From IMG/VR virus record IMGVR_UViG_2711768009_000004: DNA of 5,248 bases; one strand, 5' to 3'. The translations under genes and the position numbers were made by a program. The DNA comes from a virus (lineage: Duplodnaviria; Heunggongvirae; Uroviricota; Caudoviricetes). Of the stretch, positions 11 to 5,248 are shown piece after piece. Numbering within the stretch: the first letter of the stretch is position 1; the number at the start of each line of letters is the position of its first letter. The notes beneath the pieces were generated by a model, which saw nothing but the letters and a program-made list of their open reading frames with translations, did not search any database and was not told the DNA's origin.

Positions 11-226
11 ATGTATCAGATGGAAAAAATATCAACAGGCATTGCCTACGGCACCTCCGCCGGCAGTGCCGGCTACTGGTTTTTGCAGTGGTTGGATCAG
101 GTCAGTCCATCACAGTGGGCTGCGATTGGTGTGCTGGGAAGTCTGCTTCTGGGGCTTCTGACTTATCTGACAAATCTGTATTTCAAAATAAGAGAAGACA
201 AGCGTAAGGCTGCGAGAGGTGAATAA
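11..226 (+). CDS. S: Class II holin / pinholin, phage 21 S21-like (71 aa from ATG 11; 68 aa from in-frame ATG 20)
   Basis: Seen: N-terminus MYQMEK with two in-frame Met codons (11-13, 20-22); Gly/Ala/Ser-rich weakly hydrophobic TMD1 ([19 protein letters not shown]); strongly hydrophobic TMD2 ([23 protein letters not shown]); basic C-tail [13 protein letters not shown]. Stop TAA 224-226 overlaps endolysin ATG 226-228 (TAATG). Established: near-identical along its length to the phage 21 S21 pinholin as I recall it (from memory, not database-checked). Confidence 0.9.
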
Positions 227-595
227 TGTCGCCATCATTACGCAAGGCTGTTGCAGCTGCTATTGGTGGTGGGGCTGTTGCTATAGCATCTGTGTTAATC
301 ACTGGCCCAGGTGGTAACGATGGTCTGGAAGGTGTCAGCTACATACCATACAAAGATATCATTGGTGTATGGACTGTATGTCACGGACACACCGGAAAAG
401 ACATCATGCTCGGTAAAACGTATACCGAAGCAGAATGCAAAGCCCTCCTGAATAAAGACCTTGCCACTGTCGCCAGACAAATTAACCCGTACATCAAAGT
501 CGATATACCGGAAACAACGCGCGGCGCTCTTTACTCGTTCGTTTACAACGTGGGCGCTGGCAATTTCAGAACATCGACGCTTCTTCGCAAAATAA
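226..595 (+). CDS. R: SAR endolysin, T4-lysozyme-family muramidase (phage 21 R21-like); only first 123 codons visible, 3' end lost in N-run
   Basis: Seen: N-terminal signal-anchor-release-type segment [22 protein letters not shown], then lysozyme core with E35 (GLEG), D44 (YKD), T50 (WTV) and motif [10 protein letters not shown]. Established: this pattern and residue spacing match R21 (about 165 aa, from memory). The 258-aa ORF in the track is an artefact of reading through the Ns. Confidence 0.9.
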
Positions 596-887
596 NNNNN
601 NNNNNNNNNNNNNNNNNNNNNNNNNNNNNNNNNNNNNNNNNNNNNNNNNNNNNNNNNNNNNNNNNNNNNNNNNNNNNNNNNNNNNNNNNNNNNNNNNNNN
701 NNNNNNNNNNNNNNNNNNNNNNNNNNNNNNNNNNNNNNNNNNNNNNNNNNNNNNNNNNNNNNNNNNNNNNNNNNNNNNNNNNNNNNNNNNNNNNNNNNNN
801 NNNNNNNNNNNNNNNNNNNNNNNNNNNNNNNNNNNNNNNNNNNNNNNNNNNNNNNNNNNNNNNNNNNNNNNNNNNNNNNNNNNNNNN
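596..887. other. Run of 292 unresolved bases (N): assembly gap or masked sequence
   Basis: Seen directly: contiguous n characters from 596 to 887. Content cannot be inferred; expected to contain the endolysin 3' end, Rz start and Rz1 start. Confidence 1.
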
Positions 888-1064
888 GCAGTCTGTCAGT
901 CAGTGCGTGAAGCCACCACCGCCTCCGGCGTGGATAATGCAACCAGCCCCCGACTGGCAGACACCGCTGAACGGGATTATTTCACCCTCAGAGAGCGGCT
1001 GATGACGATGCAGATGCAACTGGAAGGGGCACAGGAGTATATCCGCACTCAGTGCATTAAGTAG
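888..1064 (+). CDS. Rz: Rz i-spanin, C-terminal 58 codons only (5' end inside N-run); stop TAG 1062-1064
   Basis: Seen: frame translation from 888 gives AVCQSVREATTASGVDNATSPRLADTAERDYFTLRERLMTMQMQLEGAQEYIRTQCIK*. Established: this closely matches the C-terminus of lambda Rz as I recall it. It is in a different frame from the X-bridged ORF in the track. Confidence 0.85.
   Translation, partial: AVCQSVREATTASGVDNATSPRLADTAERDYFTLRERLMTMQMQLEGAQEYIRTQCIK
889..1002 (+). CDS. Rz1: Rz1 o-spanin lipoprotein, C-terminal 37 codons only, embedded in the +1 frame of Rz; stop TGA 1000-1002
   Basis: Seen: QSVSQCVKPPPPPAWIMQPAPDWQTPLNGIISPSESG* with penta-proline tract. Established: matches the C-terminal part of lambda Rz1 (60 aa) from memory. 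Lies wholly inside the Rz reading frame, ending 62 nt before the Rz stop as in lambda-type cassettes. Confidence 0.85.
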   Translation, partial: QSVSQCVKPPPPPAWIMQPAPDWQTPLNGIISPSESG

Positions 1065-1578: not shown

Positions 1579-2073
1579 ATGGCTGGAACGGCGGGGCGTT
1601 CCGGGCGTCGCCCCAAGCCAACGGCGCGCAAGGCGCTGGCCGGAAACCCCGGCAAGCGAGCCCTGAACAAAGATGAACCTGTTTTTACGCCCATCAAAGG
1701 TGTTGAGCCACCAGAGTGGTTCGCTGAAGAAGATCTCCCTCTCGCCACGATCATGTGGCAACTGACAACCAAAGAACTCTGCGGTCAGGGCCTGCTGTGC
1801 GTGACTGACCTGGCGGTACTTGAGCGGTGGTGCGTGGCCTATGAGTTCTGGCGACGTGCCGTGAAAAATATTGCCATACAGGGCAACACCATCACCGGTG
1901 CAATGGGCGGCAGGGTCAAAAATCCGGAGCTGACCGCCAAAAAAGAACAGGAGTCCGAGATGAGCAGCACGGGGGCAATGCTCGGACTCGACCCCAGCAG
2001 CCGCCAGCGTCTGATTGGCCTGGCGGGGCAGAAGAAAGCCACTAACCCGTTTCTGAAAATTATCGAATCATGA
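1579..2073 (+). CDS. Terminase small subunit, P27 family (HK97 gp1-like), 164 aa from ATG 1579
   Basis: Seen: SD AGGAG (1566-1570) 8 nt before ATG 1579. N-terminus [30 protein letters not shown] is typical of P27-family small terminases (established). The track's start at 1570 is a GTG overlapping the SD and is less likely. Stop TGA 2071-2073 overlaps terL start (ATGA). Confidence 0.9.
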
Positions 2074-3803
2074 GCCGGAAATCTTACCCCAACGTAAATG
2101 CTGCAAATCAGTATGCCCGGGATGTCGTGCGCGGAAAGATTGTTGCCTGCCAGTTTGTGATTCAGGCCTGCCAGCGCCATCTTGATGACCTGATGGCGGA
2201 AAAAAGTAAGTCGTTTCGTTACCGCTTCGACAAGGACCTGGCTGAACGGGCCGCGAAATTTATTCAGCTGTTGCCGCACACCAAGGGGGAGTGGGCATTC
2301 AAACGGATGCCCATCACGCTGGAGCCGTGGCAGCTATTTGTGATCTGCTGTGCGTTTGGCTGGGTCAATAAAGGCACCCGGTTGCGCCGCTTCCGGGAGG
2401 TGTACACCGAAATCCCCCGTAAGAACGGCAAATCAGCAATCTCTGCCGGTGTTGCCCTGTATTGTTTTGCCTGTGATAACGAGTTTGGCGCGGAAGTGTA
2501 TTCCGGTGCCACGACAGAGAAACAGGCGTGGGAAGTCTTTCGCCCGGCGCGACTGATGTGTAAACGCACACCCATGCTGACGGAAGCGTTCGGGATTGAG
2601 GTTAACGCCTCAAACATGAACCGTCCGGAGGATGGCGCGCGGTTTGAACCGCTGATCGGCAACCCAGGTGATGGTTCATCACCCCACTGTGCCGTGGTTG
2701 ATGAATATCACGAGCATGCCACCGATGCGCTTTATACCACAATGCTTACCGGGATGGGGGCGCGACGTCAGCCACTGATGTGGGCCATCACCACCGCCGG
2801 GTACAACATTGAGGGGCCGTGCTACGACAAGCGGCGGGAAGTCATCGAGATGCTCAACGGCTCGGTGCCTAACGATGAACTGTTCGGGATCATCTATACC
2901 GTTGATGAAGGTGACGACTGGACCGGCCCGCAGGTGCTGGAAAAAGCCAATCCAAATATTGGCGTGTCGGTTTATCGCGAATTTTTGTTAAGTCAGCAGC
3001 AGCGTGCGAAAAATAACGCCCGTCTGGCAAACGTCTTTAAAACAAAACACCTCAATATCTGGGTGTCGGCGCGTTCGGCGTATTTCAACTTGGTGAGCTG
3101 GCAGAGCTGCGAGGATAAATCACTGACCCTTGAGCAGTTCGAGGGGCAGCCGTGCATTCTGGCCTTTGACCTGGCGCGTAAGCTGGATATGAACAGCATG
3201 GCGCGACTTTATACCCGCGAGATTGACGGTAAAACGCATTACTACAGTGTGGCCCCGCGTTTCTGGGTACCGTATGACACGGTGTACAGCGTCGAGAAAA
3301 ATGAAGATCGACGGACAGCCGAACGCTTTCAGAAATGGGTGGAAATGGGCGTTCTGACCGTTACCGATGGTGCGGAGGTGGATTATCGCTACATCCTCGA
3401 GGAGGCCAAAGCGGCGAACAAAATCAGCCCGGTCAGTGAGTCACCCATCGACCCCTTCGGGGCGACCGGGTTGTCACATGACCTTGCTGATGAAGACCTG
3501 AATCCCGTCACTATCGTCCAGAACTTCACCAATATGTCCGATCCGATGAAAGAGCTGGAAGCAGCGATTGAATCGGGACGTTTTCATCATGACGGCAATC
3601 CCATCATGACCTGGTGTATCGGCAACGTGGTCGGCAAAAACATGCCGGGTAACGATGATGTGGTGAAACCCGTCAAAGAGCAGGCGGAAAACAAAATCGA
3701 TGGTGCAGTTGCGCTGATTATGGCGGTTGGCAGAGCCATGCTGTACGAGAAAGAAGACACGCTGTCTGACCACATTGAGTCCTACGGGATCCGCTCGCTT
3801 TAA
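2070..3803 (+). CDS. Terminase large subunit (HK97 gp2-like), 577 aa
   Basis: Seen: Walker A-like EIPRKNGKS (nt 2409-2435); Walker B-like CAVVDEYHE (nt 2688-2714); C-terminal nuclease-type region with acidic motif ILAFDLARK. Start ATG 2070 overlaps terS stop. Size and motif order fit the HK97-type large terminase family (established). Confidence 0.95.
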
Positions 3804-3814
3804 CTGAGGTAATT

Positions 3815-3997
3815 ATGATCATGCTGATTCTCGCGCCTCTGGTGGGCGTGCTGGGTGCGCTTTTGCTGGCGTATGGTGCCTGGCTGATTTATCCCCCGGC
3901 GGGTTTTGTTGTTGCCGGGGCGCTGTGCCTGTTCTGGTCGTGGCTGGTGGCGCGATATCTCGACCGTACACGGCAGTCTGTCGGCGGAGGTAAATAG
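3815..3997 (+). CDS. Small hydrophobic protein, predicted two transmembrane segments, unknown function (60 aa)
   Basis: Seen: SD GAGG (3806-3809) 5 nt before ATG 3815 (second ATG at 3821). Product [60 protein letters not shown] has two hydrophobic stretches split by YPPAG and a basic C-tail. Stop TAG 3995-3997. No family recognised; could still be a non-coding leader. Confidence 0.5.
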
Positions 3998-5153
3998 TGT
4001 TCTTTTCGGGATTATTTCAACGAAAAAGCGATGTGCCGGTGACCACGCCAGCAGAACTGCTGATGCTATCGGGCTGTCATACGACACCTATACCGGAAAG
4101 CGGATCAGTAGCCAGCGGGCCATGCGCCTGACGGCGGTCTATTCTTGCGTCAGGGTGCTGGCAGAGTCTGTTGGTATGCTGCCCTGCAGTCTCTACAAAA
4201 TCAGCGGTACCCTGAAAACACGGGCGGTGGATGAACGACTGCATAAGTTGGTTTCGGCAAAACCTAATGGCTACATGACACCGCAGGAATTCTGGGAGCT
4301 GGTTATTGTCTGCCTGTGTCTACGGGGGAATTTTTACGCCTACAAGGTAAAGGCACTGGGAGAAGTGGTGGAGCTTCTTCCGATAGATCCGGGCTGTGTG
4401 GAACCGAAGCTGAACAGCCAGTGGCAGCCGGTTTATCAGGTGACGTTTCCGGATGGTTCCGTGGATGTGTTGACCCAGAATGAAATCTGGCATGTGCGCA
4501 CCCTGACGCTGGATGGACTTGTCGGGCTGAATCCCATTGCGTATGCGCGTGAGGCCATTTCACTGGCAGCGGCAACCGAGGAGCACGGTGCCAGGTTGTT
4601 TAGTAATGGTGCGGTGACATCCGGTGTGTTGCGTACGGAACAAAAGCTCACGCCGGATGCTTACGAGCGTCTGAAGAAAGATTTTGAGGAGTGTCACACG
4701 GGGCTTGGCAATGCTCACCGCCCGATGATTCTGGAAATGGGGCTGGACTGGAAGTCGATGGCGCTGAACGCCGAGGACAGTCAGTTCCTGGAAACCCGCA
4801 AGTTTCAGCTGGAAGAAATCTGTCGTCTGTTCCGGGTGCCGTTGCACATGGTGCAGAACACCGATCGCGCCACCTTCAACAATATCGAAGAGCTGGGGCT
4901 GGGATTTATCAACTATTCACTGGTGCCGTATCTGACCCGCATCGAACAGCGGATCAACACCGGACTGGTACGAAAAAGTAAGCAGGGCGTTTATTACGCC
5001 AAATTTAACGCCGGGGCGTTACTGCGCGGGGATATGAAGTCCCGTTTTGAAGCCTACGCCACCGGGATCAACTGGGGAATTTACTCTTCCAATGACTGCC
5101 GCGACCTGGAAGATATGAATCCGCGTCCCGGTGGTGTAATGCCGATCAGTTAA
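3997..5153 (+). CDS. Portal protein, HK97 family; apparent frameshift near 5' end (possible pseudogene or sequence error)
   Basis: Seen: long ORF to TAA 5151-5153 with conserved portal N-terminal core AMRLTAVYSCVRVLAESVGMLPCSLYK and C-terminal RDLEDMNPRPGG. The only credible initiation signal is GTG 3997 with GGAGG (3986-3990) 6 nt upstream, but it is in a different frame (positions 3n+1) that stops at TGA 4129-4131; the portal body is in frame 3n. First in-frame ATG of the body is 4122 (no SD). The track start 3906 is a TTG inside the upstream ORF. Confidence 0.85.
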
Positions 5154-5185
5154 GGATCAGTTGACCGATCCAGTGGCTGTGTAAG

Positions 5186-5220
5186 AATCCGGAAACGCTC
5201 ACTTGTTTCCGGATTTTTTT
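5186..5220 (+). terminator. Rho-independent (intrinsic) terminator
   Basis: Seen: perfect 11-bp inverted repeat aatccggaaac (5186-5196) / gtttccggatt (5205-5215) with 8-nt loop gctcactt, running into a T7 tract (5214-5220). Lies 33 nt after the portal stop. Confidence 0.75.
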
Positions 5221-5248
5221 ATGCACATTGGACAGGCTCTTGATCTGG

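Follow-up and report, generated by a model that had tools for sequence, protein, structure and literature searches.

The 60-codon open reading frame (ORF) at positions 3815–3997 of the window, by which is meant the whole 5,248-nucleotide stretch of IMG/VR record IMGVR_UViG_2711768009_000004, is almost certainly, in identity and in anatomy, an already known gene: YmfR of Escherichia coli K-12, L37 of phage phiP27, phrog_502 of PHROGs. Its product is a predicted membrane hairpin encoded between the large terminase (terL) and the portal. Comparison of the loci suggests that it is inherited with one branch of HK97-type head modules, and it may act in the inner membrane at the start of portal or procapsid assembly.

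The window runs from the lysis genes to the head genes of a lambdoid or P27-like prophage, as read from the list of ORFs and from matches in Pfam, NCBIfam, and PHROGs. Its features are the following.

11–226, S21-type holin, the window's own holin
From 226, endolysin, the gene being interrupted by a run of N at 596–887
888–1064, Rz/Rz1 spanins, which complete the lysis cassette of holin, endolysin, and Rz/Rz1 (11–1064)
1107–1457, HNH endonuclease
1570–2073, P27-type small terminase
2070–3803, plus strand, large terminase terL, intact, 577 aa (PF03354, PF20441, phrog_9)
3806–3809, plus strand, GAGG, a Shine-Dalgarno-like motif read from the sequence, 5 nt upstream of the YmfR ATG
3815–3997, plus strand, ymfR-type ORF with ATG start, 60 codons plus TAG, a phrog_502 member 97% identical to K-12 YmfR (b1150)
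3986–3990, plus strand, GGAGG within the last YmfR codons, read from the sequence, 6 nt before the portal GTG
3997–5136, plus strand, HK97-type portal, pseudogene (PF04860 and TIGR01537 on the 3906 frame; aligned to an intact portal)
5137–5248, terminal part of an IS4 element (100% identical to IS4 copies of E. coli genomes), by which the portal is truncated

The terL gene has ~99% nucleotide identity to that of a prophage of E. coli BS15R-A. The window is a mosaic, passing from an L003-like terL to a phiP27-like portal, with the switch across a shared patch at 3750–4150. The synonymous divergence of ymfR among E. coli phages is unusually low, which had suggested a constraint at the nucleotide level; mosaicism across this shared patch explains it better.

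The portal of this window is dead. The GTG at 3997 is the annotated start of intact portals in phiP27, in a Klebsiella phage, and in an E. coli prophage, and is evidently the true ancestral portal start. Here the frame that it opens is shut after 44 codons; there is a 1-nt deletion at ~4058 relative to intact portals, and the remainder of the gene lies in another frame. Portal homology ends at ~5137, where the IS4 end begins. Four IMG/VR contigs (L016–L019) are 100% identical over 4.3 kb, frameshift included; hence, the frameshift is not a read error, and the prophage is fixed and defective. Because the portal is both frameshifted and cut by IS4, the gene to which the YmfR ORF would be coupled here is a pseudogene. 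The ymfR gene itself survives intact within this dead prophage.

An earlier reading made from the sequence alone (hereafter, the sequence-only reading) described a 183-nt ORF with its own ATG and Shine-Dalgarno sequence, and this is what is found, the GAGG lying in the 11 nt that separate the terL stop (3803) from the YmfR start. It also proposed translational coupling into the portal. The elements of that proposal hold, namely the GGAGG in the last codons, the overlap of the TAG stop (3995–3997) with the portal GTG (3997–3999) by one base, and a position embedded in the late operon, but it overlooked that the portal is a pseudogene here. The layout is nearly invariant in 96 enterobacterial loci, with 59–61 codons and a stop overlapping the portal start, and the GAGG in the 9–12 nt gap between terL and the ATG is kept in 95 of them. 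Equivalent G-rich motifs precede the portal in other enterobacterial loci as well. Among 40 divergent loci, the YmfR stop and the portal start overlap by 1 nt in 30, overlap by 4 nt in five, and lie 0–2 nt apart in four. A strict Shine-Dalgarno sequence precedes the portal start in only ~38% of loci, with or without the small gene (background 10%), so that the general feature of the junction is the overlap of stop and start rather than the GGAGG.

The identity of the gene is given by its matches. The peptide matches phrog_502 ("membrane protein") with E = 2.8e-28, residues 1–55 aligning on profile positions 3–57 of 58. It shares 58 of 60 residues with YmfR (b1150) of the cryptic prophage e14 of E. 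coli K-12, the differences being at residues 53–54, in the variable tail; in K-12 the gene is flanked by the terL remnant aaaE and the portal fragment beeE. A megablast search with positions 3500–4300 matched 1,604 of 5,426 complete E. coli genomes, and in about 1,600 E. coli genomes the PGAP label is "ymfR: protein YmfR", between "terminase large subunit" and "phage portal protein". In phiP27 this gene is L37, annotated as "putative integral membrane protein"; in ST64B it is Sb3 and in phiKO2 gp3, and it is also found in SfI, SfII, SfIV, and 118970_sal3. Among isolated phages, PY54, phiKO2, Marinobacter AS1, Azospirillum Cd, and Stutzerimonas PG1 are further carriers or examples of it. The sequence-only reading did not recognise this catalogued identity; its statement that the function is not readable from the sequence is one with which we agree. 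The profile searches that it proposed led to phrog_502 in PHROGs and to no family in Pfam. Neither Pfam nor NCBIfam holds a model for YmfR; the best Pfam match of the window protein is TctB (E = 0.025, below the cut-off), and distant members of the family have only weak matches to DUF2244 and DUF1206, also below the cut-off. A sequence search of the PDB with YmfR found no similar solved structure.

The family is much wider than the enterobacteria. There are 166 close clusters, almost all of 60 aa. A phmmer search of 1.84 billion representatives gives 173 proteins with E ≤ 1e-3, almost all of 50–70 aa, and these align as a single family in which G11, G14, G21, W23, the P-A-G turn, and G35 are conserved. 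All 33 distant members of alignment A2 match phrog_502. A profile search extends the set to 664 clusters, with sources in Neptuniibacter, Marinobacter, Halomonas, Pseudomonas, Nitrobacter, Sphingomonadales, and uncultured marine phages, and relatives down to ~35% identity are found in prophages of Alpha- and Gammaproteobacteria. The window ORF has the character of the family, a two-helix hairpin of ~50–65 aa with the conserved positions. In the literature, the search for "ymfR" returned gene lists, mentions as part of e14 deletions, and no functional study; the search for phrog_502 returned nothing; and the search for genes between terminase and portal returned only unrelated actinophage insertions, the SPP1 genome paper containing nothing relevant.

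By its pattern of substitution, the ORF is a real coding gene whose membrane core is under purifying selection. In 65 distinct enterobacterial loci, pN/pS is 0.23 for the whole ORF, 0.09 for the core (codons 1–46), and 1.05 for the tail, where pS is low (0.029); the corresponding values for the adjoining parts of terL and of the portal are 0.20 and 0.21. The bias toward synonymous change that the sequence-only reading suggested looking for is thus present. At larger distances, YmfR changes about twice as fast as its neighbours (pN 0.2–0.28 versus 0.06–0.15), while still being constrained. In all 40 divergent homologous loci compared the frame stays open, so the segment neither lacks a conserved reading frame nor looks like a mere leader, two of the outcomes that would have told against the original proposal. 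The other five frames have stops in 16–36 of these loci; since only the YmfR frame is free of stops throughout, an antisense ORF of 95 aa and the stretch by which the portal frame extends upstream are incidental. Six residues (G11, G14, G21, W23, G30, and G35) are kept at 30–40% overall identity, and nearly all members have 46–63 aa with two spans.

The hydrophobic peptide with two spans and a basic tail that was first noticed is confirmed by closer analysis. Its GRAVY is 1.16, there is no charged residue between positions 1 and 46, and two hydrophobic stretches are parted by Y26-P-P-A-G30. The tail (47–60) contains R47, R51, R53, K60, and D50, for a net charge of +3. Among the 46 stop-to-stop segments of at least 50 aa in the window, the one holding the YmfR ORF is the most hydrophobic, and because it ranks first its hydrophobicity is beyond chance. 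AlphaFold2, given an alignment of 55 sequences, predicts helices at 2–25 and 29–56, with 26–28 non-helical and a mean pLDDT of 68.7. The peptide can be divided as follows.

3818–3889, plus strand, predicted transmembrane helix 1, residues 2–25 (hydropathy, AlphaFold2, and conserved columns), with the family-conserved G11, G14, G21, and W23
3890–3904, plus strand, tight turn Y26-P-P-A-G30, the best-conserved motif of the family (alignments A1, A2, and A6), predicted periplasmic
3899–3952, plus strand, predicted transmembrane helix 2, residues 29–46, with conserved G30 and G35 and, in enterobacteria, C38, W41, S42, and W43
3953–3994, plus strand, basic C-terminal tail, residues 47–60, variable in sequence, predicted cytoplasmic, its last codons doubling as the portal ribosome-binding site

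In enterobacterial members G58 and G59 are nearly invariant, the tail being otherwise free to vary. Their codons coincide with the portal ribosome-binding site and are probably dual-use nucleotides. Four proteins are head-to-tail tandem duplications of the hairpin in one polypeptide, and distant members carry charged N-terminal extensions. Tandem duplication keeps the topology only if both ends of the hairpin are on the same side of the membrane. Together with the positive-inside rule applied to the basic tail, and with the charged extensions, this suggests that both termini are cytoplasmic. The duplicated forms and the many conserved small residues (Gly/Ala) also suggest that the hairpins pack side by side into an oligomer.

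The position of the gene is fixed. All 138 copies that were located lie in the slot between terL and portal, as the sequence-only reading had proposed to check by synteny; they comprise 96 close relatives, eight distant members found by look-up, 26 from a portal-selected sample, and eight from reference or named-phage records. The eight distant members all lie between TerL and Phage_portal, with a prohead protease and an HK97-fold capsid downstream and usually HNH and small terminase upstream, even though the terL of these loci is only 21–48% identical to that of the window. The portal-selected sample came from a scan of IMG/VR for which the seed was an alignment of portals, headed by a Nitrobacter prophage portal. 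It returned 80 loci, 36–69% identical to that portal, of which 74 contain both terL and portal. A phrog_502-like ORF is present in 26 of the 74, always in the slot; terL abuts the portal in 43; and five have a larger gap, including one divergent family member missed by the profile and three unrelated inserts, among them an HNH gene. In HK97 itself terL overlaps the portal directly. Hence, the statement that HK97-type modules run from terL straight into the portal is accurate for HK97 and for these 43 relatives.

On the portal tree, the presence of YmfR is clumped in clades with a few switches. YmfR identity follows portal identity (Mantel r = 0.55, a value reached in none of 2,000 permutations; Spearman 0.23), and its correlation with terL identity is not significant (Spearman 0.07). 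At portal identities of 28–43%, YmfR is still ~35% identical. Carriers include both siphoviruses (PY54, phiKO2) and myoviruses (SfI, SfII, SfIV), and YmfR accompanies holins of three families (S21-type, lambda-type, and 3_5-type). The comparison of portal N-termini between modules with and without YmfR found no distinguishing feature. From these comparisons, YmfR looks like a gene co-inherited with one branch of HK97-type HNH–terS–terL–portal–protease–capsid modules, and the apparent pattern is that of inheritance with the module, occasional loss, and rare gain, not that of an independently mobile cassette. With roughly one in three related modules carrying it and the others lacking it, it is an accessory and not a core part.

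Which role would suit such a gene? By analogy with T4, YmfR may be an oligomer in the inner membrane that tethers the portal ring or early procapsid or helps to nucleate it, a reading to which we give a probability of roughly 0.3. The terL, YmfR, and portal genes are read in series (terL stop, 11 nt with GAGG, ATG, 60 codons, stop overlapping the portal start). In the late phase YmfR would be made next to the portal protein; in the inner membrane it would then hold or nucleate the product of the next cistron, as portal ring or early procapsid. In T4, assembly of the portal initiator on the inner membrane depends on gp40, with the involvement of YidC (PMC9958956, PMC9026906). What YmfR would share with the T4 gp20/gp40/YidC system is a phage-encoded helper acting at the start of head assembly on the cytoplasmic face of the inner membrane. 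However, gp40 has no similarity to YmfR (hhalign probability 0.07%); it has 114 aa, is acidic, lacks a predicted membrane span, and its gene is not adjacent to gene 20. As gp40 is thus neither related to YmfR nor transmembrane, the likeness is one of role only, and besides T4 our search found no other precedent for membrane-linked portal assembly in tailed phages.

Some points tell against a tether. Adjacency and coupling could reflect a mere convenient insertion point, and there is hardly any cytoplasmic mass to bind with, as the tail has 4–14 residues and is neutral at the protein level. Portal N-termini are alike whether or not a module has the gene, and procapsid assembly in HK97 is not known to call for a membrane. 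Because 43 of the 74 related modules and HK97 do without YmfR, any role that it has must be dispensable or replaceable. In a more specific and rather unlikely version of the same reading, a ring of hairpins in the inner membrane would template or hold the twelve-fold portal ring translated from the next cistron. The ring idea rests on the tandem-duplicated forms and on conserved small-residue faces, as in other ring-forming hairpins.

It is unlikely that YmfR is instead a moron-type accessory that excludes superinfecting phages or blocks DNA entry at the inner membrane, like HK97 gp15 or T4 Imm. Morons such as these are independently expressed accessories; as defined by Hendrix and colleagues, a moron reportedly lies between normally adjacent genes, has its own promoter and terminator and an odd base composition, and is expressed from the repressed prophage. 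YmfR resembles gp15 and Imm in being a small phage-encoded inner-membrane protein among structural or other genes. The two genes that flank it are neighbours in HK97 and in 43 of 74 relatives, its presence is patchy, its PHROGs category is "moron, auxiliary metabolic gene and host takeover", and intact copies persist in decayed prophages, namely e14 and this window. Yet it is not an autonomous transcription unit. A consensus scan of the plus strand found no promoter-like or terminator-like site flanking the ORF; with only 11 nt between it and terL, and with the portal overlapping it by 1 nt, there is no room for such signals; and the gene is translationally chained to the late genes. Nor is its base composition deviant, with a G+C of 0.58 in a module ranging from 0.50 to 0.59 (terL and portal) and no compositional break. 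In K-12, ymfR RNA rises together with the e14 lytic genes, by ~4.5 log2 along with other e14 genes under SOS-inducing treatment, which fits lytic rather than lysogenic expression (PMC10012262). Unlike mobile morons, YmfR keeps the same slot across modules with strongly diverged terL, and it diverges in step with the portal. A blocker of DNA entry would be expected to go with the injection machinery; YmfR instead stays with the head module, whether the tail is that of a siphovirus or of a myovirus. PADLOC gave no match for the window protein or for three distant members, and YmfR is unlike T4 Imm in sequence (hhalign 0.3%). The idea that a membrane peptide is out of place here and fits a moron is therefore not borne out.

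It is likewise improbable that YmfR modulates lysis as a late-made holin or antiholin, or that it otherwise regulates the timing of lysis or the membrane potential. The resemblance to class II holins such as the S21 pinholin is real in outline: ~60 aa, two membrane helices, both ends predicted inside, a short charged C-terminus, late-operon expression, and conserved small residues that favour helix packing. However, YmfR is not homologous to them. It has no significant match to a holin profile in Pfam or PHROGs, and its hhalign probability against the window's own S21-type holin is 1.1%. The window already has a holin, an endolysin, and Rz/Rz1, and since YmfR occurs beside three unrelated holin families it has no fixed holin partner. 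It is never found in the lysis cassette, from which it lies 2.7 kb downstream in the window. An IPTG-induced ASKA clone of ymfR came out of a screen among the candidates that grew (PMC10299036); this speaks against strong lethality, if weakly, because ASKA proteins are tagged. The sequence-only reading had offered a holin or antiholin, a superinfection-exclusion factor, or a toxin; with no similarity to holin, defence, or Imm profiles, and with lysis cassettes already complete, these proposals lose their footing. What had pointed specifically to lysis timing or exclusion is taken away by these results, leaving either as an improbable role.

It is decidedly improbable that YmfR is a virion-associated or ejection protein, a hairpin at or near the portal that would help DNA across the inner membrane at the next infection. 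In favour of this, YmfR is encoded within the structural module and chained to the portal, and would be made in portal-like amounts if coupling were efficient. Against this, its presence in virions was not found in the literature searched, it is common to contractile and non-contractile tails, which deliver DNA differently, and it is dispensable in many sister modules. An uncharged stretch of 46 residues would probably also be hard to keep soluble inside a capsid. Finally, that the peptide is inert and the ORF only a translational relay or untranslated leader setting the supply of ribosomes to the portal start would fit the nearly universal overlap of stop and start and the use of the last codons as portal ribosome-binding site (tail pN/pS ~1, synonymous change depressed), but it is very improbable given the strong conservation of amino acids in the core (pN/pS 0.09, the six residues kept), the maintenance of length, of two spans, and of the open frame in divergent loci, and the fact that no relay is needed where the gene is absent, the portal start there overlapping the terL stop. 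These readings do not take up the whole of the probability, and the rest falls to some role of another kind.

Phage lambda also has a small gene at this point of the map, lying between terminase A and portal B, and it provides a source of confusion. Its product, gpW, is a soluble head-tail joining protein, whereas YmfR has 46 uncharged residues and two membrane helices and no match to the gpW model of Pfam. In several GenBank records the YmfR-type ORF goes under the name "head-tail joining protein W", which appears to be a positional misannotation. This has a practical side, as many records leave YmfR unannotated or name it "gpW".

In conclusion, YmfR is a catalogued protein whose function has never been studied, and it is more than a stray passenger. 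How deeply its slot is conserved, the purifying selection, and the co-divergence with the portal are new with respect to the literature searched. Several inducible model phages carry it (SfII, SfV-like phages, ST64B, phiP27, PY54, and phiKO2), which makes it cheap to study. A role in lysis or exclusion, if it had one, would add a new protein family to those functions. HK97-type assembly is thought to be fully cytoplasmic, and a conserved integral membrane protein in the head/packaging operon has no place in this standard picture. If, as in the tether or nucleation reading, YmfR acts on the portal or procapsid, one step of assembly would be linked to the membrane in a very common class of temperate phages. 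Were the ring version true, a large branch of proteobacterial HK97-type phages would start their heads on the membrane, as T4 does, by means of an unrelated protein of 60 residues.

Judged by identity to phiP27 and to a prophage of E. coli BS15R-A, window positions 2070-5136 are a mosaic. The terL gene (2070-3803) is ~99% identical to that of the BS15R-A prophage versus 61-84% to that of phiP27, whereas the portal gene has 94-99% identity with phiP27, and its 5′ half only 64-83% with BS15R-A. The switch from one type to the other lies within a patch at ~3750-4150, where the window, phiP27, and the BS15R-A prophage share at least 90% identity. The ymfR gene (3815-3997, + strand) is inside this patch, which accounts for its very low synonymous divergence among E. 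coli phages. The two parts of ymfR evolve differently across enterobacterial loci. The tail (codons 47-60, window 3953-3994) has a pN/pS of 1.05, i.e., neutral evolution at the protein level, and it accumulates fewer synonymous changes than the core of codons 1-46 (pS of 0.029 vs 0.053). The low pS of the tail fits with the last codons of ymfR doubling as the ribosome-binding site of the portal gene.

The portal gene of the window (3997-5248 region) is a pseudogene: its frame is broken after 44 codons by a 1-nt deletion at ~4058, and its 3′ end is missing, as the end of an IS4 element is found at ~5137. Four IMG/VR contigs are 100% identical, frameshift included, and three of them stop just past the IS4 junction. 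The same pattern of an intact ymfR beside a decayed neighbor is found in the e14 element of E. coli K-12. There, an intact ymfR (1205549-1205731), sharing 97% identity with the window copy, has only remnants as neighbors on both sides (the terL pseudogene aaaE and the 157-aa portal fragment beeE). The survival of ymfR beside decayed genes in the two elements may be due to chance, the gene having only 183 nt.

A complete lysis cassette (window 11-1064) lies immediately upstream of the packaging genes and comprises:

S21-type holin with two membrane spans (PF04971)
Endolysin, whose N-terminus (18 residues) resembles a signal-anchor-release segment
Rz/Rz1 spanins in nested frames

An assembly gap of 292 consecutive N (window 596-887) falls within the endolysin and spanin region.

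Because of this gap, ORF calling merges the endolysin and Rz1 frames into a false 258-aa ORF.

Several GenBank phage records (ON470603, ON470584, ON470580, and PQ793804) label the YmfR-type ORF "head-tail joining protein W," which appears to be a positional misannotation taken over from lambda. The records of PY54 (AJ564013/NC_005069) and SfIV (KC814930/NC_022749) leave the ORF without any annotation. E. coli-type YmfR sequences (94-97% identity) also occur in two records of attributed Gram-positive origin, JAEWTL010000102.1 ("MAG: Bacillota bacterium") and OR844959.1 ("Enterococcus phage Efm 3-10," 1,764 bp), likely through contamination or mis-binning.

Four family members (P0141, P0150, P0168, and P0179; 102-122 aa) contain the whole YmfR hairpin duplicated in tandem within a single polypeptide, with four spans each. 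Some relatives (L175, L179, and L181) carry unrelated insertions of 0.8-2 kb between terL and portal, including in L181 an HNH endonuclease gene. Hence, the terL-portal junction is itself a site of insertion.
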